From Adineta steineri (taxonomy: Eukaryota): a stretch of DNA of 45,248 nt. Both the position numbers and the translations under genes were made by a program. The DNA is taken from positions 108,962 to 154,209 of the forward strand of contig CAJNOI010000182.1 in the NCBI GenBank assembly GCA_905250115.1, given 5' to 3'. Positions 7,888 through 45,248 of this stretch are shown here, one piece after another (within the stretch, counting starts at the first letter, position 1; the number at the start of each line of letters is the position of its first letter). The notes under the pieces were generated by a model that made no database searches, was not told where the DNA came from, and was given only the letters and a program-made list of their open reading frames with translations.

Positions 7888-9904
7888 AATTTGTTCGTAA
7901 TAATAAATAATAGAATAATATTGATGGAATATAGATGTTAATATTAATTGCTTAATAGAAACTGAAAGAAAAATAAATGAAAATTTAATTCTAAAATTTA
8001 TTATCTACAATCAACGTCATAAGAAACAACGAGATATTAATATAGTCACAAAAAAGAAATGCTCAAAACACTCTCTGCCTGAAGGGATAACATAGAAGTG
8101 GCACAATAAGACACACTCACTCTATAGATTTTGGAATGTGTATGTGTCAGCAATAACGATATATGAATAAAGCGTGTTCGACACCAATTTTTTTTTTTGC
8201 ATAGAACTTCTATATGTCGGTTTCCGCAAAGATAAACAGCTCTACACTTTCTCTTCTTCTCTCTTCTCCTCTTCTCTCTCTCTATCTTATTCTTTTTTTT
8301 TTATTCTTGTTATAATGAAAAGCAACAACAACAATAACAGCTAAAGGGTACCATATGAATTGAATATGAACGTCTCAACAATCGACACTAGTTCTGTTTT
8401 ATTTGCCCTCGTCCGTTCATCTCCTTCAAGCTTTTCATGTTCATTAGAATCATTATAAGACATGTTCAGACAAGTGCAAACATCAAGAAAAAAGAAATTG
8501 TGTTCAAGGACAGATGATACCTTACATAAATATCCGAACTGATTCAATCAATGATTTATACATATAAATAAAGCTACAAATTTTTTAGTAATGAATGACT
8601 AAAAATAGTTAACAAAGCAAAAGATTGATTTTTCATACAAAAGAATAATATAGAAAATGTCGAAGGATCTCTTAATCAAAATACTGGAATCTATACAATA
8701 CATTGAATTGAACTACATATGAAAGAGTTCGAAACTTGTTATTATTTGTTCGTATTATATTATTATTATTATTTGATGAATTACAATAAATATATCGACT
8801 ATATGAGAAAATTTCATATTTTCTTCGAATTTGTTTTCATATGATTACGTCACTATTCGTAGGAGGAGTGCATAACTTACCTTTACTGTCAAAACATGTC
8901 AAAAATGCACTTCCTTTCGGATTAAGACTATCGGAAGAAATCAAATATAACTGTTTACATGTATTTTCTTCAAATGAGACAGACAGCAAAGCAAGAAAAA
9001 AAAACATATTGTGATCTTTTCCTTTTTCTATACTGCAGTTTTGATTTGAATCTATTTATATAACAGCACAAATTTGAATGATTATATAGAGAAACATTCA
9101 TTGTTCATTAGATAGAAGAATAAATGTAAAACTCTACTATTATTTCTTGTTACTATTCTATCAATAATTAGAATATGCAATGCACATGTCAAAGAACTAC
9201 TCCTCTGGCTTTGCTCGCCTGATCTATTTCATAAAATATTGATCATGTAGATAGTTGCAACAAAAAAGGAAATTAAAGAAAACAATTATATTCTTCTGTT
9301 ATTTTTTCGTTCATGATCTTTCTTTATGAATCATGATACTTCAATTCGATATAAATATTTCATTAGATTTTTAAATAGAATCAATACTTGTTGAATTGAT
9401 TTTTTTTTGTTTATTAGAATATTTTCATTCAATTGTACAAAATGATATTACAGAAAATAATTAGTAAAATTATATTATTTAGCATGAATATTGTTTACGG
9501 AAGGGGAAAATTATACGGTAGATAGAATTTTTCTATTTCATATTCATTATTATTATCATCATCAATTTTGTTCTTATTTTTATTTTCATGTTACATTAAA
9601 TAACTGACAAAATGTAGAGTTAAATTCAAATCTATGGAATCTATCTTACACTCAATCAAGGTCTTTGTAGCATAGTTTATATGAGAGACATGACTTTATC
9701 AAAAATAATCTCATTAGATACAACTACTGTTAACTCAAGAAAATTAGTTAGATATAAGAGTATTTTCGAGTATGAATTGTTAGAATAGCTTTTATTCATT
9801 GCCTTGATGTTCTTCATACAACTAAATTTTAATTGTAGATTTCAGTTGATGTTATTAGATTCTTCTATATGAATTAACTTATAACAGTTTAATTATCTTT
9901 TCGA

Positions 9905-31399: not shown

Positions 31400-34300
31400 A
31401 TGAGTAAAACAACTACTGCAAGTGATACTAAAAGTCATTCAAGTCCAGTTTATCGAATTCCACCTTATCATTATATTCATGTATTGGATCAAAATACAAA
31501 TGTTACACGACTTGAAATTGGTCCCAAAACATTCATTAAACAAGATAATGAAACAGTTATTCTTGGACCCGAAAAGATGATCACAGTACCGTATGTAAAA
31601 AAGAAATGCAAATAAATAAATAATTATTTTAAATCTTATTTCAGACCACGTCATTATTGTGTTGTTGAATCACCTGTAATACGCAATGAAGCTGGAGAAG
31701 TAGAATTTGATGAAAATGGTCAAGCTAAACTTATTCATGCTGATTTGGATATTCGTCTTGCACAACCTGATCAAGCACCATTTCCACTTTATCCTGGTGA
31801 AGTTCTTCGTCAAGTATAGGATTGAAAAAATTTTGTTTAAGAAATAATATCAATTATTAAATTCTTTTTTAGCCTGTTACTCCTTTAAAAGTTGTACCTG
31901 CTAATTCAGCATTACGGCTCAAAGCTGTACTTGATTTTGATGATGAAACTGCTAAAGAACAACGTCGTGCTGGTGATGAATGGTTATTTGAAGGTCCAGC
32001 TACTTATATTCCACGTAAAGAAGTTAGTGTTGAGGAACAAATTCGTGCTACAGTTATTGGTTCTAATCAAGCCATTCGACTTTGTGCAAAAAAAGAAATT
32101 ACTGATCGTACTGGTCAACATCGTGTCACTGGTGAAGAATGGTTAGTTAAAAAAACCGGTGCTTATTTACCTCTTGCATATGTAAGTTAAAAAATTACTT
32201 TTATTAATACTAATTAATTATAAACTAAACATTATAGGAAACAGTTGTTTCTGTTGAAAATGCTCATGTATTAACCGATAAAAAAGCTTTACAACTTCGT
32301 GCATTAAAAACATTTACTGATGATTTTGGTAAAGAACGTATGAATGGTGAAGAATGGCTTATAACTTATCTTGATACAGAAACACATATACTTAGTGTTT
32401 ATGAACAATTAGTTGCTGTTGTTGATGTAATAACACTTAATTCTCGTCAATATTGCGTTATAATTGATCCAGTTGAAGATGGAAAACAACAATTAGGAAA
32501 AAAAGTTTGTTATCAAAAATTTTTGTTTTGTATTTTAGAAAAGTTAGAATTTTTTTAGAAACTTATTCTTGGTGAAAAATCATTTTTTCTTCAACCTGGT
32601 GAAAAACTTGAAAATGGTATTCAAGATGTTTTTATATTAGGCGCAGATGAAGGTGTTATACTTAAATGTATAGAAGCATTTGAAGATCAACAAGCTAATG
32701 TAAAACGAAATCCTGGTGATCGATGGATGATTCGCGGTCCAACGTAAGATATGGATTTTTATTTAATTTTGAAAATTAATTTAAAATAAATTTTTAGTGA
32801 ATATATTCCTCCAACACAAGTTGAAGTTGTTACACGTCGAAAAGCACTTCCACTAGATGAAAATGAAGGTATCTATGTTCGTGATATAAAAACGGGTCGT
32901 GTACGGGCTGTTATTGGTGAAACTTATATGTTAACACAAGACGAAGAACTTTGGCAAAAAGAATTACCTAAACAAGTTGAAGATTTATTAACACGTGATG
33001 CGTTAGTTGATCGAAATATTCCAACACGTAATAGAACAACTGATAAAAATCAATCTCAACAAGAAACTACTACTAATTCAAAATCAAATGCAGTTAAACG
33101 TGATAAATCTAAATTAGTTACATATCGTGTTCCACACAATGCATGCGTACAAATTTATGATTATAAAGCTAAAAAAGCACGAATTATTTTTGGTCCTGAA
33201 CTTGTTATGCTTGGTCCAGATGAACAATTTACATTACTTTCATTAAGTGGTTCTGTACCAAAAAAACCTAATCAAATTCAATCACTTTGTTTATTATTGG
33301 GACCCGATTTTTTTACTGATGTTATTGTTATTGAAACAGCTGATCATGCTCGTCTTTCTCTTCAACTTTCATATAATTGGCATTTTCAAATTACTGACAT
33401 CAGTGATGAAAAAGAAGCTGCAAAACTTTTTTCAGTACCAGATTTTATTGGTGATGCAGCTAAAGCTATTGCTTCTCGTATACGTGGTGCTGTTGCTGGA
33501 ACACAATTTGATGATTTTCATAAAAATTCAGCTCAAATCATTCGTGCAGCTGTATTTGGTCTTGATGCTAATCAACAAATTCGACAACATTTTATTTTTC
33601 CACAAAATAATTTAGTTTTAACATCAATTGATATTCAAAGTGTTGAACCTGTTGATCAACGTACACGGGATGCACTTCAAAAAAGTGTTCAATTAGCTAT
33701 TGAAGTAAGAGGAATTATTCTAATACAAATATCTAAAAGTAAAAATAAATAATTTAGATTACAACAAATTCACAAGAAGCAGCTGCTAAACATGAAGCTT
33801 CACGTCGAGAACAAGAAGCTAAAGGTTTATTAGAACGACAACGTATTAGAGATGAAGCTGAAGCTGAAGATGTTCGAAAACAACTTCTTCAATTACAAGC
33901 ATTATCAGCTGCTGTTGAATCAACTGGTCAAGCTAAAGCTGAAGCACAAAGTCGTGCTGAATCACATCGAATTGAAGGTGAAGCAGCTGTTGAACAAGGT
34001 ATGAATAGAAATTATTGATGATAAAATTTTCATATAAAAAAATTATTTTTATTTTAATTAGCTCGTCTTAGAGCAGAAGCTACACGTATTGAAGCTGAAG
34101 CTGAATTATCACGTTTGAAATTAGCACGTGAAGCTGAAATAAAATTTTTACGTGAACAAAATGAATTAGAAATTAATAAAAAAGCTGAAATGTCAAAAAT
34201 TGAAACTGAGAAATTTACATTACAAGTTGAAGCGATTGGAGCATCAACCATTCAAGCAATTGCTACTTCTGGTCCAGATACACAAGTTAAACTTTTACAA

Positions 34301-34462
34301 GCACTTGGTCTTCAATCAATGTTGGTTACTGATGGAAATACACCTATTAATCTAATGGGTTTTGGACAAGGACTTTTAGGTGGTTTAACTGGAAATACAA
34401 ATAAAAAATCTAGAACAGCTACTAATACTTCTAGTAATTATCATATTGAAGAGAATGATTAG
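31400..34462 (+). CDS. MVP: Major vault protein (MVP), 8 exons, 889 aa.
   Basis: Exons are 31400..31590, 31644..31812, 31873..32181, 32238..32504, 32559..32743, 32798..33704, 33758..33998 and 34062..34462. All junctions are GT..AG and in frame. The product is collinear with vertebrate MVP throughout: [209 protein letters not shown].. and the C-terminal coiled-coil cap. Confidence 0.93.
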
Positions 34463-35272
34463 ATACAATAAATTTATATTTCTTGATGAACAAAACCAAA
34501 AAAAATATTGTCTGTTCGTTTATGTTTTAATGTTGATAACTTTGTTCTAAACATTTAGTTTGATTATTTTGTAAAAGTTTACACATGAACAATAAATATG
34601 ACTATTTACCATACAATATAAGTTCTTATGTTATTTGTTTCAATATATAAGCTTAGTTATATCACATTTTACCATCTTGAGGTCATAGACAGAGCAAACC
34701 CACATCCTGGAAGTAAAGAATTTTTGAATCAAATCAAAAAGAAAAGCATATTTTATTTTATAGCCATTTGTTGGATTTCGTTTATGAAATGGAAATTTAC
34801 CATTTAAAAAAACTAGTGCAGTTCTAAGCCATCGTGAAGTTCAATATATTGATGATCATGAATTGAAGCTTGATCAAGTTATTACTGTGTACTAATGCCA
34901 AAAGTACCTTTAAATATTTCTACACGAAGTAAACTTATTGAAAATTACAAAGGAAAAAAAAATAAAGTTATTTTTGATTATTGTTTCTAGCTCATTGACT
35001 TGCAATTGAAGGTAACGACTAACCATTAAAGCGGATCTTACGACAGATTCATTAGATCCTGTAAGATTCTCTAGAACAAAATCAAGTTTTCGATGTATTT
35101 TATTGTGTTTTTATATGAAGTCGCTAACAAAGAAATGACGTAATCTTGATGCATCCAAAAGAAAAGTTCAAATCCACATAAACTTTCTTTGGTACATTTA
35201 AAAAAAATACTCATGAATTATGGATGATAGAACTAGTAGCGTATCCAAGGCCACCGATAAAAACCTCTTGAG

Positions 35273-35330
35273 GGTGTGGGTGTGTGTTGGTGTCTCTTTT
35301 CTTAACTTACACCCATACCCAGCCACACCT
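35273..35330 (-). repeat. GT-rich quasi-palindromic hairpin element, copy 1, inverted relative to copies 2 and 3.
   Basis: gggtgtgggtgtgtgttggtgtctcttttcttaacttacacccatacccagccacacc. Its reverse complement is about 90% identical to 35404..35456. Confidence 0.6.
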
Positions 35331-35403: not shown

Positions 35404-35456
35404 GGTGTGGGTGTCAGTTAAGAAAAGAGACACCAACTCACACCCACACCCACGTT
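35404..35456 (+). repeat. GT-rich quasi-palindromic hairpin element, copy 2. It marks the start of tandem unit A.
   Basis: ggtgtgggtgtcagttaagaaaagagacaccaactcacacccacaccc. The arms GGTGTGGGTGTC / GACACC..CACCCACACC are mutually complementary. Confidence 0.6.
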
Positions 35457-35640
35457 CCGTTCAACCGAAATACTGCTTCCATGAAATCGTCGGAATACCA
35501 CGGAACCGGCCGTTTCCATGTCGGATTGTTCGACCTGGGCCATCGGTTTGTTCTGTTTTCTTGTTATTATATGAAAGTATATTTGTAAATTTATTCTAGA
35601 TATATATTTTTTCTTGTCCAAAAACGAAATTTGCAGCAAA

Positions 35641-35893
35641 ATGGCTGGATCATTTATTTTAACTGAAGGAAATGAATTAGCAATAGCTTATTTCAATCGA
35701 GCAGAATATGCTATTGCAATTGTTGATGATGCTGGCTTCGTTTACGATAAGAGTATTAAAATATCAGAAAAGAAATGTGCTGATTTGTTTATGTGATGAT
35801 GAATGTGTTATACTTAAAAGTAGAAAGAATGAAAAAATGTTTTTTGTTCTTGGTGATATTACATGTGCATATGTCTGTATTGAAATGGATTAA
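35641..35893 (+). pseudogene. Frameshifted relic of a CDC48/VCP N-terminal-domain gene (unit A).
   Basis: MAGSFILTEGNELAIAYFNRAEYAIAIVDDAGFVYDKSIKISEKKCADLFM* stops prematurely. The continuation, ...CDDECVILKSRKNEKMFFVLGDITCAYV, is homologous to the unit-B sequence LFVDNGEYVIVKSEKCLETICIVRGDNTCL but lies in another frame. Confidence 0.65.
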
Positions 35894-35945
35894 GATGCAC
35901 AAAGTAATTTAGCTGTAAAAAAAGGTGACACTGTATCTATTCAAG

Positions 35946-36003
35946 GGGTGGGTGTGGGTGTAAGTTAAGGAAAGTGACACCAACACACACCCACACCCAA
36001 CCT
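35946..36003 (+). repeat. GT-rich quasi-palindromic hairpin element, copy 3 (start of unit B).
   Basis: ggggtgggtgtgggtgtaagttaaggaaagtgacaccaacacacacccacacccaacc. Confidence 0.6.
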
Positions 36004-36187
36004 CCGTTCAACCGAAAACTGCTTCCATGAAATCGCCGGAATACCACGGAACCAGCTGTTTCCGTGCCGGATTGTTCGACCTGGACCACCGGTTTGTTTT
36101 GTTTTCTTGTTATTATATGAAAGTATATTTATAAATTTATTCTAGATATATACTTTTTCTTATCCAAAAACGAAATTTGGCAGCAAA

Positions 36188-36574
36188 ATGGCTGGATCAT
36201 TTATTTTCACTGAAGAAAATGAATTAGCAGCAGCATATCTCAATCGTGCCCAACATGCCAATGCAATTGTAGACGATGCTGGTTTTTATTATGACAAAAG
36301 CATCAAGTTATCAGACAAGAAACGTGCTGATTTGTTTGTAGATAATGGTGAATATGTTATAGTCAAGAGTGAAAAATGTCTTGAAACAATTTGTATTGTT
36401 CGTGGCGATAACACATGTCTCAATGATCGTATTCGACTAAATACCGTTGTAACAGACAATTTACGTGTATATTCTCGTGATTTTGTTACAATTCATAAGT
36501 GTGGAAATGTTCCAGATGGTAGCCATATATATGTTTTACCGATTGGTTATTCTGAACACGGATCAAGTAGTTGA
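36188..36574 (+). CDS. Stand-alone CDC48/VCP N-domain (double-psi beta-barrel, Nn subdomain) ORF, 128 aa. It may be a remnant first exon of a decayed VCP paralog.
   Basis: MAGSFIFTEENELAAAYLNRAQHANAIVDDAGFYYDKSIKLSDKKRADLFVDNGEYVIVKSEKCLETICIVRGDNTCLNDRIRLNTVVTDNLRVYSRDFVTIHKCGNVPDGSHIYVLPIGYSEH.. aligns with p97 residues about 20-115: [96 protein letters not shown]. It terminates before the Nc subdomain and has no ATPase domain. Confidence 0.6.
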   Translation: MAGSFIFTEENELAAAYLNRAQHANAIVDDAGFYYDKSIKLSDKKRADLFVDNGEYVIVKSEKCLETICIVRGDNTCLNDRIRLNTVVTDNLRVYSRDFVTIHKCGNVPDGSHIYVLPIGYSEHGSSS

Positions 36575-36690
36575 TAAAGGATGGGATTCTTTTCAAGTAC
36601 TCTCAAAAACCGAATTGGTGATATTTTTTATTAACTTACATTATTATTGTTTATATATCTATGTTTAGAAAAATTCAGCTATTGTAATTA

Positions 36691-36826
36691 CCCAGGTCGA
36701 TGAATACGCGATTCGTATACGGTCGTAATACTGAGACAGGTAATACGCTAAAGTACGACGGAATACGGCACGACATTCGTATACTGTTCGTATACGGTCG
36801 TTTACGACAGACAATGTTCGACCTGG
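36691..36826. mobile_element. 136-bp MITE with perfect palindromic termini CCCAGGTCGA...TCGACCTGGG and subterminal repeats.
   Basis: The first 11 nt, cccaggtcgat, equal the reverse complement of the last 11 nt, (a)tcgacctggg/ttcgacctggg. The interior has reiterated cgtatacggtcgt and gtaatacg motifs. There is no ORF. Confidence 0.6.
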
Positions 36827-36835
36827 GACTATTAT

Positions 36836-37001
36836 AGCTACAACAAATCGACAACGTTTAATTGATTTGCCGCTTTATCTTCGTGCTCAATTTATATACG
36901 AAGTTCTTATTAACACACCTGATGCTGATGAGCGTTTTGATATTCTTGGTAAATACACAGAAAATATGCAATTGGATGATGATGATCGAATACTGCCACC
37001 G
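36836..37001 (+). pseudogene. Isolated fragment of a VCP/CDC48 D1 ATPase domain (the region just after the arginine fingers), sitting between inverted MITE copies.
   Basis: The in-frame translation ..LRAQFIYEVLINTPDADERFDILGKYTENMQLDDDD.. aligns with p97 [39 protein letters not shown]. It is only about 55 codons long and is bounded by a stop codon and by MITE sequence. Confidence 0.55.
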
Positions 37002-37005
37002 TAAC

Positions 37006-37127
37006 CGATCGTTTATCTGCGTGAACGAGAGTATACGATACGGAGAAATACGACCGTAATACTAAGACACGTAATACGTGAAAATACGACCGTATACGAA
37101 TTGAGTATTCATCGACCGGGGTATGTT
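37006..37127. mobile_element. Partial second copy of the 36691..36826 MITE, in inverted orientation.
   Basis: The reverse complement of 37090..37127, ccccggtcgatgaatactcaattcgtatacggtcgta, matches 36691..36727, cccaggtcgatgaatacgcgattcgtatacggtcgta, at 33 of 37 positions. It shares the same subterminal motifs. Confidence 0.55.
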
Positions 37128-37454
37128 CGGCAGCTACTTTATATCGAATTCGACAACAAATGGATGTTATCGACGCCGCAAAAAAAATCATTCATTCCAA
37201 TGTCTTCGGTTCATCAGCTGTAAAAAAAGAAGATTTTCTATTCGTCTTAAACAACAGAAAATAAAAATTTATCTGTATTTGTTGTTTTTTTTTTGAATTA
37301 AATCAACAAAATAAAATATATATTATATTGATCTAAAACTTTTCTAATTATTCTTTGGTACGTGCATCAATATACAAATTTTATTTGAAAAATAATTTAT
37401 CATTTATAAAAACATTTGTTCTGAACTCTGTATACTCAATAAAAAAATATGAAA

Positions 37455-37655
37455 GAAAAAAAACGAAATCAATGAAAACTTCCTTCTTAAGAATGGAGTT
37501 TGCACTGTACATTTCTCACATAAAGATCGTCGTGTTGTTATTCTAATTGAACAGATGAAACTAGTAACACCAAAATAAAATAATAAAGTTGTTTGATTAT
37601 CAATCATCAATTTTTTTCAAACGAATTGTTGTTTTATTTAAAAGATTTATGTCAT
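37455..37655 (+). repeat. Dispersed ~200-bp repeat 'R', copy 1. Copy 2 is at 45052..45248.
   Basis: aaacgaaatcaatgaaa..ggagtttgcactgtacatttc..gataaagatcgtc(g/a)tgttgttatt(c/t)taattgaacagatg(a/g)aactagt(a/g)acaccaaaa..ttttttcaaacgaat..ttttatttaaaagatt is about 88% identical between copies. It carries a short conserved ORF ..GVCTVHF(S/P)(H/D)KDR(R/H)VVILIEQM(K/E)LVTPK. Confidence 0.7.
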
Positions 37656-38239: not shown

Positions 38240-40522
38240 TTACTTATACAACGAAGGAAAATAACGACATAAATCTTCCGAATGCACCACTGGTTCTATC
38301 GAAGTTATTTTTGTCACCTTAGCACAATTGCGTCGTGTTTCTTCCCTAGTAAAGTCTTTTGTTACAGTTTTTAAATCATCAACATAGACTTCAAATTCAG
38401 TCAGACAAGGTACGAATGTCTTTGTTTCATTTAGAAATTGATCAATATAATCTCTATGTGCAGATACGACACCAAGTACAGTCAGATGAGGATATTCAAT
38501 AATCGACTGTAATAGACAATTTTCAGATGACAATGTCATAAGACCATTTAAATTTTGTGATTTTTCATTCCGAATAAAAAGATGCTTGAGTAACGGAAAC
38601 GATCGGGCAATTCGCATGAAGAATTCATGTTCGAATGGAATAATATCTTGTATAACTAAATAGGTAACATAACTAAATACAATATTTGGAAAGTTATTGC
38701 CAATATCTCGGAGATAATCAAATCCAAAAGGAAGTGAGAAAACGGAGCATGCAGCTCTCACACCATAAATACAATTAACTTCACTAATAACATAATTGAC
38801 CATACTACTGACATGTTGTTGTCCAATATTTCTTAATTTTATTCGAATATCTTCACTTGATAACTTGCAGGATAAAACAGCTGGATCAACATAAGTACAA
38901 ATATAGAAAGTGAATGAACGAAGTTGTGGCATATAATCCAAAATATCATGTTGAACATAAGTACCACCAATAACTCTATTTCGACCTTTTATAGAAATAT
39001 TTAGAGTTAACTTTTCCAGATCTGACATACGACGAAGAAGTAATACAACTTTATCATATTGATATAATGGGCAGGACGATTTTAATGAGAAACATTTTAG
39101 ATTCAATAATTTATCCTACAAAAAGAAAGAAATGTTTTTTTGATAATCTATAAGATTAAGTCATTGGCATCATTATTTTACACATGATATATCATCTATA
39201 TTCTATCTGTGAATGACCACAAATGACAAATCTATTAAATTGATTTTCTCATTTTATAGCACAACAAACGAATGTTAAAAGAACAATCAAAGCTTCAGAC
39301 CGCAAACTTTCGATCATATCTGAATTATTAGAAAAATTGTTATTATAGAAAAACTTTCGTTCCATCCAATGCTGATGATCATTCACATATGATAATATTT
39401 GATCAATCATGAAACAGAGTAGTCCAGTTTTTAATGTGAACTATATTCGATAAAATATTATATAGTTATAATTTCTGGCTACAAATTTCATTGGTTCGTT
39501 TATTAAATTGTAATTTCTACTACCTACAAACTAAATGTTGATGATTTTGATATATTCCTCAACACGAATATTTTTTTCTCCTTATCAAAATAAAACTTAA
39601 ACTTTCAATCTTATCTCAATTTTTTGAGATCAATCGTTAACTGCATTGAAATAGCCGTAATCTTCGTGGCATAAATGAAATTATTTGTAACAACTTACCA
39701 TATTGCGAACACTCTCTGAGTGTGTGTCTATATAATAGACATTAACACACAATGTTGCCAATTTTTTAAGTCGACCATCAAGTAAATAAAGACAATCACC
39801 AAAAGTTTCGACATTGATATATAAATGAGTAAGAGTCGAAGATGAAAAAGTAGTCGATGGCAAATAACAAAGTGATAAAGGTGGACATGACCTAACAGAT
39901 GGTTCTATGATACTTAATTTTTTTAAGTTTTTGAAAAAGATCAAGATGTAAGCATATACATTATCAGTATATATCTTCGGGAAATATTCCTTGTTGTATT
40001 TATCATCATTGATAAGAATAAGGTTTGTAATTTGTTCTTGAAAAATAGATCGAAGTGATGATTTATCTAAAGGAGAAAAGTGATGTATTGAAACATATTA
40101 TTCTTCTTTCATTTGTAACTCTTTTATTATTTCTCAACTAATCAAAGTCATATTAAATGCTTACTTGTAAAATAGTTTGAAGCGATTTCTTCTTGGAAAT
40201 GAAAAATTGTAAGTTTAGTTAAATTTGGATAGTCAGTAGCAAGAAGAATACGTTCCATAAACATTGGATCAAAAGCAAAACATTTCACATTGTGATGAAT
40301 TCTTGGTAATATATCACTGCAGAATCGATCGATGATAGAAATATTATCAATGGAAACAAACTTGAGAATGTTGCTGAAAATATTTTCTTGTGCAAGAATG
40401 TTAAGTCGTCCATCATTCATATCCAATAAAGAATATAGTATATCGATATTGTTCAAGTACTTCAAAATAATAAGCAATATTTCATTAGGTAAATCCAGAA
40501 GATGAGCATTCGATCGGTTCAT
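38240..40522 (-). CDS. F-box protein (N-terminal F-box, long C-terminal region of unrecognised type), 3 exons, about 530 aa.
   Basis: Exons are 40165..40522, 39699..40066 and 38240..39115. The N-terminus MNRSNAHLLDLPNEILLIILKYLNNIDILYSLLDMN is a textbook F-box (LP.EIL..I..YL). The downstream exons are collinear in frame. Intron 2, at about 583 bp, is unusually long for this locus, so a missed exon or a two-gene split cannot be excluded. Confidence 0.65.
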
Positions 40523-42487: not shown

Positions 42488-42654
42488 GCAACTACATCAA
42501 TCGTTTATCTTGAAAATTTGAACCAGATTGTTATTATGATGAAACAAATTTGATTTATATAATTTGATTTACAGTTTTTTTAATCTTGCCATTTATGACA
42601 ATAGATTTGTAAATTTTTTTTAGATAAAAATTTTAAATTTTCTTAAATACTCAT

Positions 42655-44216
42655 ATGAAAATGGCTGCAAGTAATAATGATGGTAAATATGAAACTGTTC
42701 CTGTAGCTGATAAACATGCCGGTGATGAATTACAAGTTGAAGATCAGAACGACGAGGACCATAATACTGTTGTTCTACCAGCTCAATTATTGCGAGATAT
42801 ATTCGATTCATTTAAGAAACTTTTCATCATCATTCATCATCAAGTACATGATAAATCTCTTGTATGCGTTGGTAAAACGCAGAACGTTAGATTAGCTCTT
42901 CCTGGTCCAAAAATGAAAATGAGTCGTGTAATAAGGAAAAATTTGAATATATTATTAAATGATGTTGTGACATTTGACGCATGCCAAAATATTATAGAAG
43001 GTGAACGTCTTGAAGTCGCACCCATTTATGATACCATTAATGGATTAACAGGAAGTCTATTAAATATTTTTTTAATACCATATTTTCGTATTAAAAATCC
43101 TGGTCGACCGGTGAATCAAGGTGAATTTTTTATTGTTCGTGCAGCTATGCGTGCTGTAGAATTTCAAGTTATTAAAACTGTACCAGAACCGTATTGTATT
43201 GTTGGACCCAAAACAAAAATAGTTTGTAAAGATGTTCCAGTTAAACGTGAAGAAGTGAAATCATCGTTGAATGAAGTTGGTTATGATAGTATTGGTGCTG
43301 TAAAAAAACAACTGGCATCAATTAAAGAAATGGCTGAATTTACATTACGACATCAACCATTAATTAAACTAAGTGGTGCTACACTGGCACAACGTATTCT
43401 TCTCTATGGACCACCTGGCACAGGTATAACAAAAAGAAATCTTATTTTATTAAGAAAAAAAATGTTTTATATTTTAGGGAAAACATTGGTCGCACGTGCC
43501 GTGGCAAACGAAACAGGTGCATCATTCTTTTTAATTAGTGGACAAGAAATGATGTCTAAATTAGCTGGTGATGAAGAAGTAACATTAACTAAAGTTTTTG
43601 AAGAAGCTGTAAAAGTAAATACATAATAGTTTTTTTTAAATAATTAAAATTAAGAAATTATTCGGTATTATTTTATTTATAGAAATCTTCAGCCATCATT
43701 TTCATTGATGAGCTCGATGCTATCGTACGAAAACGTCAAAATACACATGGTGAAGTTGAATGTTGCATAGTATCACAATTATTAACAATAATGGAGAATC
43801 TTAAACAACATTCACATGTTCTTTTTATGGCTGCCACAAATCAACCAAATGACATTGATTCAAAACGATTTGGTTTTAATCTCGAAGTTGATTTGAACAT
43901 AGCCGATGATGATGTTAATGGTCGTTTAGAGATCCTTCTTATACATACAAAAAATTGGAATCTACATCATGATGTTAATTTAGAACAGATTGCTAAAGAA
44001 ACACCCGGTTATGTTGGTGGAAACTTAGTCTCATTATGTTCAGAAGCTTATTTACAACAACTTCGAGAAAAAAAGGATATTTTTGTTCCAGGTCAAGATA
44101 CATATCCTGTTGAAAAACTCGATTTATTATGTATTACTGAAGAAAATTTTCGAGTTGCATTGGAGCTATCAAAAAAAACAGTTCTACGCAAATCTGTTTC
44201 AAAGAAAAAAGACTGA
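42655..44216 (+). CDS. VCP/p97/CDC48-like AAA+ ATPase paralog, truncated to N domain + D1 domain (no D2), 3 exons, 477 aa.
   Basis: Exons are 42655..43423, 43478..43608 and 43683..44216. Splicing of intron 1 (54 nt, gtataac..ttttag) restores the Walker A P-loop GPPGTG|[14 protein letters not shown]. The product aligns with p97 from the N domain through D1: ..[241 protein letters not shown]... It stops where the D1-D2 linker would begin. Confidence 0.85.
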
Positions 44217-44403: not shown

Positions 44404-44460
44404 TAGTGGGTGTGGATGGAATAGAATACACACACGAACACTCTCGTCCACGCCCACCCT
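44404..44460. repeat. GT-rich quasi-palindromic hairpin element, copy 4, located 3' of the VCP-like gene.
   Basis: gtagtgggtgtggatggaatagaatacacacacgaacactctcgtccacgcccaccc. It has the same GTGGGTGTGG...CCACRCCCACCC architecture as the 35273/35404/35946 copies. Confidence 0.5.
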
Positions 44461-45051
44461 TCATTATCAGTATGAAATTCGTCATCAACATTAACATCAA
44501 ATATTAGTTCATTACTTGGTTCTTCTGGTGAACCAACAAATGTTGCTTCCAATTAATCATCTAATGCTTATTCACCATATTCAAATCATCCAACACAATC
44601 ACCAGTTATGCAAATCAATTATCAATGTAAAAAACAAACAAAATAAAAATTATAAGAAATATTTCTTTAAAAATCCTTTTTGTTTTTATATAGCATAAAG
44701 TTCTTATATTCTAACACCAGTTGTATCAAGTGATAGTTTTTCTTCATCATCGAATAATAATACTTCATCTGACCAATCTTCATTTGAAAATAATGTTTAA
44801 TTACCAACAATAAACATTACACCTGTGACACCAAGTGCACAATATGCACCAGTGCCAACTTCACTTCGTTAGTTTTTTCTTCATCTTTTCTTGATAAATA
44901 TAAGAATTAAATGAATAGACTTTGACTCAATAACAAATAATGATTGACATACAGAAGATTTGTATGCTAGAATCAAAGTTTCAAATAAAGATGAAACAAT
45001 TTATGTTGAAATGATTGGTGTTATTCAAAGTATATCTGTAGATTTTCTATT

Positions 45052-45248
45052 AAAGAAGAAAACGAAATCAATGAAAGTTTCTTTTCTTAAGCAGGGAGTT
45101 TGCACTGTACATTTCCCAGATAAAGATCGTCATGTTGTTATTTTAATTGAACAGATGGAACTAGTGACACCAAAACAAAACGATAAAGTTATTTGATAAT
45201 CATTTATCTATTTTTTTTCAAACGAATCGATTTTTTATTTAAAAGATT
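45052..45248 (+). repeat. Dispersed ~200-bp repeat 'R', copy 2. It runs to the end of the window.
   Basis: See 37455..37655. The conserved short ORF here reads ..KQGVCTVHFPDKDRHVVILIEQMELVTPKQNDKVI*. Confidence 0.7.

Follow-up and report, generated by a model that had tools for sequence, protein, structure and literature searches.

Two short transposon-like elements, E1 and E2, lie in opposite orientations in the 45,248-nt stretch of DNA analyzed here (the window), and the sequence that they enclose encodes part of the D1 domain of a VCP/p97/Cdc48 AAA+ ATPase. This arrangement raises the question of whether the elements captured a gene fragment from elsewhere, in the way of a Pack-MITE, or whether they inserted into VCP sequence that was already in place. 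The host sequence around them is referred to here as locus A; paralog B, a second VCP-like gene 6 kb downstream of it, is much better preserved and was the reference for the losses of locus A. Upstream of locus A there are ORFs that, by eye, we take to be exons of a major vault protein (32928-34462, + strand), and downstream of it ORFs that presumably encode F-box/leucine-rich-repeat proteins, a kind expanded in rotifers (38240-40522, - strand; also by eye). The window has a eukaryotic look, with exon-sized ORFs and short AT-rich introns, and its GC content is ~28-30% throughout, in agreement with the 29% reported for Adineta steineri (PMC7943196). Together with the similarity of its N-domain ORF to an A. 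steineri protein, this makes Adineta the probable source of the window.

Table 1. Features of locus A and paralog B (positions are those of the window)
Feature	Position	Strand	Description
Tandem units	35404-36497	+	two 547-bp units, 35404-35950 and 35951-36497; repeat spacing 546-547
U1	35483-35539	+	3'-terminal 57 nt of a MITE of the sister subfamily (CCGGAA repeats), ends TGTTCGACCTGGG; profile E 1e-8
A1	35641-35944	+	decayed tandem copy of the N-domain start; stops and a frameshift
U2	36030-36085	+	same MITE end as U1, apparently copied by tandem duplication; profile E 6e-8
A2	36188-36574	+	intact 128-codon ORF; first half of the Cdc48/VCP N domain only (p97 10-119)
D1 codons left of E1	36669-36690	+	seven codons, KNSAIVI, preceded by AG; p97 337-342 or ~296-302
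E1	36691-36827	+	complete 137-bp MITE, ATACG-repeat subfamily
D1 coding remnant between E1 and E2	36828-36998	+	171 bp, 57 codons, stop-free
E2	36999-37121	-	full-length inverted copy, 123 bp, subfamily of E1
D1 lid remnant right of E2	37124-37264	+	p97 412-457; stop at 37262-37264; E 7e-5
Paralog B	42655-44216	+	VCP-like gene, N and D1 only, two short introns; E 6e-113

E1 and E2 are two full-length MITEs

E1 carries perfect 10-bp terminal inverted repeats (CCCAGGTCGA at 36691-36700 and TCGACCTGGG at 36818-36827; 10/10), and its interior is rich in ATACG/CGTAT repeats. It matched the family profile, of which it is itself a part, with an nhmmer E value of 6e-29, and its DNA fold gave a z of -4.0. 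The limits of E2 were set by alignment to E1, with which it is identical at 94 of 121 positions (78%); the profile match in E2 covers 37005-37121, and blastn inside the window detected the similarity of the two elements with E values of 4e-10 and 1e-9. The outer end of E2, CCCCGGTCGA, matches the terminal repeat at 9 of 10 positions, and its inner end is mutated (CCGTAACCGA in place of CCCAGGTCGA, ~5/10). The outer 39 nt of the pair, flanking TA included (36689-36727 and 37085-37123), are 92% complementary (36/39). No transposase ORF was found in E1 or E2: the longest ORFs that they contain measure 45-59 aa and are without real homologues. Of two protein-database searches with the open frame of the MITE minus strand, one gave no candidate and the other only repetitive unrelated proteins. 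Both elements are short and non-coding, with terminal inverted repeats and dispersed relatives, as is characteristic of MITEs. The original prediction had described E1 as a complete 136-bp MITE with perfect ends at 36691-36826, which is correct except that the element extends to 36827 (137 bp); the second copy, given there as partial at 37006-37127, is indeed inverted, but the alignment shows it to be full-length at 36999-37121.

Relatives of the two elements define a mobile family

A metagenome scan with the paired ends CCCAGGTCGA-N(95-125)-GTTCGACCTGGG returned 33 loci; the left-end pattern of E1/E2 alone gave no match in metagenome and viral scans. Prokaryote-like contigs of high GC content accounted for 26 of the 33 loci (23 distinct matched stretches), with no enrichment in ATACG or CCGGAA and with matching 2-nt flanks in only 2 of the 23 stretches, and they are by all appearances chance matches to a GC-rich pattern. 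The other seven (L005, L008, L010, L013, L015, L018 and L022) have 30-40% GC and contain elements of 122-147 bp that share the same ends, are GC-richer than their surroundings and fall into two subfamilies according to their subterminal repeats, an ATACG type and a CCGGAA type. The conserved end of the family is CCCAGGTCGA(AC), and E1 is 71-78% identical to these relatives. All seven are flanked by a perfect target-site duplication with a fixed length of 2 bp (TA in three cases, CA in two, AA and TT in one each), which is imperfect in the window copies: E1 is flanked by TA on the left and by AC, followed by TA, on the right, without a clean duplication, and E2 by CA and TA. Since the same ends recur in seven low-GC contigs, each with a 2-bp duplication, against 2 of 23 by chance, we consider the family to be real and, judging from these copies, mobile. 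Its dispersed copies comprise two full copies and one half copy in the window, seven in unrelated low-GC metagenome contigs and a degraded one in a further contig, L037. The identification of E1 and E2 as MITEs in the original prediction was thus borne out by the ends and 2-bp duplications that they share with elements of other low-GC contigs. The two findings that it had named as fatal to itself, an element unique in the genome or a similarity restricted to low-complexity sequence, were not obtained: relatives exist in other contigs, and the similarity of E1, E2 and the end motifs is not of low complexity.

The long ORF of L005 has 18 homologues, and the sole named one is from Adineta steineri; the low-GC contigs with relatives are probably bdelloid (one of the seven tested). 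The degraded copy in L037, which is a low-GC and probably bdelloid contig as well, is a relic of the CCGGAA type at 8953-9044 (nhmmer E 2e-4). The same contig carries at 546-1803 a mariner-type element (Pfam Transposase_1) with perfect 34-bp ends (TATTGGGTTGATGC...) that are unrelated to the MITE family. When L005 (MITE at 413-559) was compared with L034, the two contigs were 97% identical up to the MITE boundary in L005, at ~1117 in L034, and had nothing in common beyond it. L034 was rejected as an empty site for the L005 MITE, for it has unrelated sequence instead of the post-MITE flank; the break could reflect a chimeric assembly or a rearrangement whose breakpoint coincides with the MITE end. 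The window and ~100 kb of probably bdelloid loci yielded no autonomous partner element with CCCAGGTCGA ends. A search for the end sequence in the searchable literature matched only unrelated primers, and a bdelloid MITE family whose ends are CCCAGGTCGA and whose 2-bp duplication is relaxed in sequence was not found there; this is the mildly new part of the present work, and only mildly so.

Locus A and its better preserved paralog

The VCP sequence retained in locus A comprises p97 residues 10-119, seven D1 codons (337-342 or ~296-302), 343-394 and 412-457. Locus A has lost the Walker A region together with the N domain's second half (at least p97 120-295); in addition 303-342 is missing if the flank to the left of E1 corresponds to the third exon of paralog B, and otherwise the missing part is 120-336 as a whole, Walker B included. 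A functional VCP would have a complete N domain and a complete D1 with Walker A and B, and D2; measured against this, the sequence of locus A falls short, and it appears to be a relic rather than a working ATPase.

A2 matched p97 with an E value of 1e-16 and the Pfam CDC48_N domain with 2e-4, the latter being below the Pfam cut-off. Its sole homologue is an A. steineri predicted protein that is 91% identical, on account of which A2 may have remained a gene. The ORF closes with a stop codon, and no simple phase-compatible splice from its end into the D1 frame was found. Around the MITEs, 3 of 14 candidate GT-AG pairs are in frame, which is about the chance rate, and they would define introns of 96-185 nt, compared with 54-68 nt in paralog B; the possibility that the MITEs act as introns was discarded on the basis of this chance rate. 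We read the D1 remnant as a pseudogene relic, and one that may not be fully dead, with 110 codons that are still stop-free.

Paralog B contains the Pfam domains CDC48_2, AAA and AAA_lid_3. One of its introns (~54 nt) lies inside the Walker A codons and the other (~68 nt) before the Walker B strand. No D2 was detected before the end of the window, and paralog B may be a non-canonical truncated Cdc48 paralog. Two blocks of DNA are shared with locus A, one upstream (35559-35610 and 42584-42634, 81% identity) and one downstream (37448-37647 and 45048-45248, 87% identity), and the protein similarity is weak (27% in the N domain, 24% in D1). The non-coding flanks (81-87% in DNA) are therefore far better conserved than the coding parts (~24-27% in protein), for which gene conversion, conserved regulatory DNA and another repeat are the candidate explanations. 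As a separate observation, the arginine-finger region of paralog B is degenerate, with KRFGFNLE at the position of RRFGRFDRE.

The enclosed D1 sequence is collinear with its flanks

A tblastn search with a human VCP sequence, which served as a lead only and was checked against PDB p97 chains, placed three collinear pieces on the + strand: p97 10-119 at 36218-36544, 343-393 at 36831-36983 (E 7e-6), i.e., between the two MITEs, and 414-457 at 37121-37252. The two short D1 pieces were not recognized in a Pfam search, and they were recognized by phmmer against the PDB. When the translated pieces from either side of E2 were concatenated, a single alignment to PDB p97 chains was obtained (341-457, E 4e-11). 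Deletion of E2 plus 2 nt (36999-37123) fuses the inner and the outer frames (...DDDDRILP/CSAATLYRIRQQ..., that is, ...RILP/CSAATLY...) up to the stop codon at 37262-37264, and the 125 nt removed are the amount expected from the rule of the family, the element plus one copy of the 2-nt duplication. With E1 removed as well (36691-36831), a 109-codon ORF results that corresponds to p97 337-394 plus 412-457 (E 5e-12), and the alignment to 337-394 is then gapless across the E1 site. At the E1 site itself, removal of 139 nt would be expected, but it takes the removal of 138 or 141 nt to restore the frame.

The stretch KNSAIVI at the left of E1 is too short for secure placement, and its seven codons may represent the start of the third exon of paralog B instead of p97 337-342. 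If so, ~120 nt of host D1 sequence would be missing beside E1, which would account for the lost target-site duplication. Both placements make the left flank a D1 segment that precedes the enclosed piece, and neither affects the collinearity. The alternative placement comes from a resemblance of 36643-36690 to 43657-43705 of paralog B, in which 36643-36682 and 43657-43696 (end of intron 2 plus the KSSAIIF codons) are identical at 31 of 40 nt (shuffle p ~0.07).

Since the enclosed piece has the order, strand and frame of the VCP sequence outside both MITEs, and since excision of E2 restores the frame, it appears to be the resident gene's own sequence and not a captured fragment. The original prediction was right in describing an in-frame stretch of VCP D1 between the elements, but this stretch measures 171 bp (36828-36998) and not 170 bp. 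The outer flanks of the pair are TA and TA, which might be taken as a duplication generated by the whole unit; they carry little weight in this sense, because TA is the commonest target of the family and two separate insertions leave the same flanks.

A MITE end upstream of the N-domain ORFs

No further full copies of the elements were detected in the 45-kb window by blastn; only a 13-nt end motif recurs upstream. This 13-mer, TGTTCGACCTGGG, is exact at 35527-35539 and has one mismatch at 36073-36085, so that, with the ends of E1, the window contains four matches to the end motif vs 0.12 expected. The recurrence had been noticed originally at 35524-35537 and 36074-36087, and the motif is that of the family, but these coordinates were off by 1-3 nt. 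U1 and U2, in which the motif lies, correspond to the last 57 positions (3' end) of the family profile, from which both were left out, and can be closely aligned to L010, L013 and L022, relatives of the CCGGAA type; a matching 5' MITE end was not found upstream of either. U1 is located 101 nt upstream of the ATG of A1 and U2 102 nt upstream of that of A2. Besides the MITE end, each of the 547-bp tandem units contains a palindrome, the 5' leader and the beginning of the N domain; U1 and U2 are, as far as this arrangement tells, one insertion that was passively copied by the tandem duplication. The identity of the two units is graded, with 90-94% in the MITE end, the 5' leader and the first 36 coding nt, 74-76% in the next 150 nt and 52-64% beyond, a gradient that points to a mosaic origin or to a tract of gene conversion more than to decay at an even rate.

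The ~100 bp before the ATG include the 52-nt block that is common to locus A and paralog B (81% identity), and no MITE was found upstream of paralog B. Because the block is also present in a paralog whose upstream region is free of MITEs, at least this 52-nt part of the proximal 5' sequence is probably ancestral and not MITE-derived. A more distal contribution of the MITE end to the promoter may exist; the high conservation of the MITE end and the 5' leader is equally explained by gene conversion. The suggestion that the element family supplies promoter or 5' sequence to the N-domain ORFs is therefore not sustained, given a single duplicated insertion and a leader block shared with the MITE-less paralog B.

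GT-rich palindromes of ~50 nt were observed at 35272-35324, 35404-35453 and 35946-35998, with a degraded look-alike near 44405-44460. They are built on GGTGTGGGTGT...ACACCCACACC, i.e., on the hexamer TGTGGG, and the pattern has 8 matches vs 0.07 expected. Two of them end ~30 nt upstream of the matched ends of U1 (palindrome end at 35453) and U2. The hexamer TGTGGG is the bdelloid telomeric one (PMC7943196). These palindromes might represent a small foldback element or the addition of telomere repeats at a break. In a search of Rfam the only matches were sub-threshold miRNA hairpins, all on the GT-rich palindromes.

Origin of the locus

The reading that we consider very probable is that two MITEs inserted separately and in opposite orientations into a gutted VCP paralog, and that the 171 bp enclosed by them are resident. 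Locus A (~35.4-37.3 kb) would be the gutted paralog of a VCP/Cdc48-like N-D1 gene whose better preserved relative is paralog B. Two members of one MITE family would have entered its remaining D1 coding sequence independently, and 171 bp of this sequence would thereby have become bracketed. The family would be a non-autonomous cut-and-paste element of 122-147 bp with short subterminal repeats and a 2-bp duplication that is most often TA, and a transposase provided in trans presumably makes a 2-nt staggered cut. A third and older insertion, of the sister subfamily, would have occurred ~100 bp before the start codon; of this element, no more than the 3' end (57 nt) can still be recognized, and the 547-bp tandem duplication would have carried it along passively. 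The identity of E1 and E2 (78%), which is no closer than that of E1 and its relatives in other contigs (71-78%), fits two separate insertions. The picture is an ordinary one: in a gene-dense bdelloid genome, a decaying tandem paralog has received members of one MITE family three times within 1.7 kb, and such a cluster in a decaying gene copy is as expected if insertions survive mainly under relaxed selection. The finding documents a MITE family of a bdelloid rotifer and matters little beyond annotation.

The original prediction had instead interpreted the locus as a Pack-MITE-like capture, in which both MITEs and the D1 piece would form one mobile unit whose fragment was picked up elsewhere. 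The outer ends of the pair are both of the left type, complementary at 36 of 39 positions and each abutting TA, and the 431-bp unit is structurally a possible transposase substrate that as RNA would form a long hairpin (z = -7.4). Nevertheless, we regard this interpretation as extremely improbable. The enclosed sequence (p97 343-394) continues on the same strand outside E2 (p97 412-457), the short p97 stretch missing between them seems to lie within the enclosed piece and not at the junction, and excision of E2 alone restores the frame; moreover, a unit arriving from elsewhere would not have hit a VCP paralog exactly at the homologous site. Each arm is a complete MITE that has both its ends, and the pair is not a single element with a replaced interior; the fragment is not ectopic but continues collinearly into VCP sequence at either side, and a second copy of the unit is absent from the window. 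With its outer ends of the same type and each next to TA, the 431-bp unit could in principle be moved by the transposase of the family, together with the VCP exon fragment. That E1, the D1 piece and E2 already form a nascent composite, and relatedly that the loss of the E1 duplication and the ~120-nt gap reflect an adjacent deletion induced by the transposase, is in our opinion very unlikely; if true, it would represent a first step towards Pack-like exon shuffling in a bdelloid rotifer.

E1 and E2 could also descend from one inserted element that was then duplicated locally in inverted orientation, as they are adjacent, inverted and of the same subfamily. However, they are 22% diverged and no closer to each other than to unrelated members of the family, their similarity stops at the element ends and does not extend into the flanks, and the intervening and surrounding host sequence is collinear and occurs once, so that we consider a duplication highly improbable. 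It is less far-fetched, though still unlikely, that the locus is expressed, with the MITEs spliced out or partly exonized and/or with the upstream MITE end providing promoter sequence. A2 is intact and close to its A. steineri counterpart, the D1 remnant is open over 110 codons, frame-keeping GT-AG pairs span E1 (36715/36810 or 36715/36837) and E2 (36949/37133), a further pair leads from the N ORF into 36669, and the tandem units are most alike in the MITE end and the 5' leader (90-94%). Against expression, the in-frame pairs do not exceed chance and their introns are longer than those of paralog B, neither the Walker motifs A and B nor any of the N domain's second half are left, and the 52-nt block before the ATG is common to the MITE-less paralog B.

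Comparison with known systems

Locus A is homologous to the VCP/p97/Cdc48 AAA+ ATPase in the N domain and in the C-terminal third of D1, and differs from it in the absence of half of the N domain, of Walker A/B, of the arginine-finger motif and of all of D2.

Two complete inverted elements around host DNA are the structure from which composite units arise. Composite transposons with two IS copies and the Ac/Ds macrotransposons share with the E1-E2 pair two complete inverted elements with good outer ends and host DNA in between. In contrast to them, the E1-E2 pair shows no sign of movement: it was seen in a single copy, its two elements have diverged by 22%, and E2 has a degraded inner end.

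Among MITEs, the family resembles the Stowaway-like elements derived from Tc1/mariner in its size (~130 bp), non-coding nature, short terminal inverted repeats, fold-back potential and 2-bp duplication, and also in that TA is the commonest duplication (in three of the seven relatives, and also at the outer flanks of E1 and E2, which are intact). It differs from them in that four of the seven relatives have perfect non-TA duplications (CA, CA, AA and TT), and the ends of the mariner-type element of L037 are unrelated to its CCCAGGTCGA ends. A strict assignment to Tc1/mariner was rejected, only three of seven duplications being TA. The ends of CMC elements start with CAC, whereas those of the present family start with CCC, and the CMC superfamily was discarded as well. 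ISL2EU (PHIS superfamily) duplicates AT within an A/AT/T target (PMC4482050). An assignment to it would require AT duplications, and none of the seven is AT; what the family has in common with both ISL2EU and CMC is the 2-bp length of the duplication.

The likeness to Pack-MULE and Pack-CACTA ("Pack-TYPE") transposons consists of the inverted transposon ends at both sides of a gene fragment. Pack-TYPE transposons are single elements, typically multi-copy, with an interior replaced by ectopic gene fragments from elsewhere. In locus A, unlike in these, two complete MITEs lie inside the parent gene and the fragment is collinear with its flanks, and we would advise that collinearity with the flanks be checked before a capture is inferred from inverted transposons around a gene fragment.
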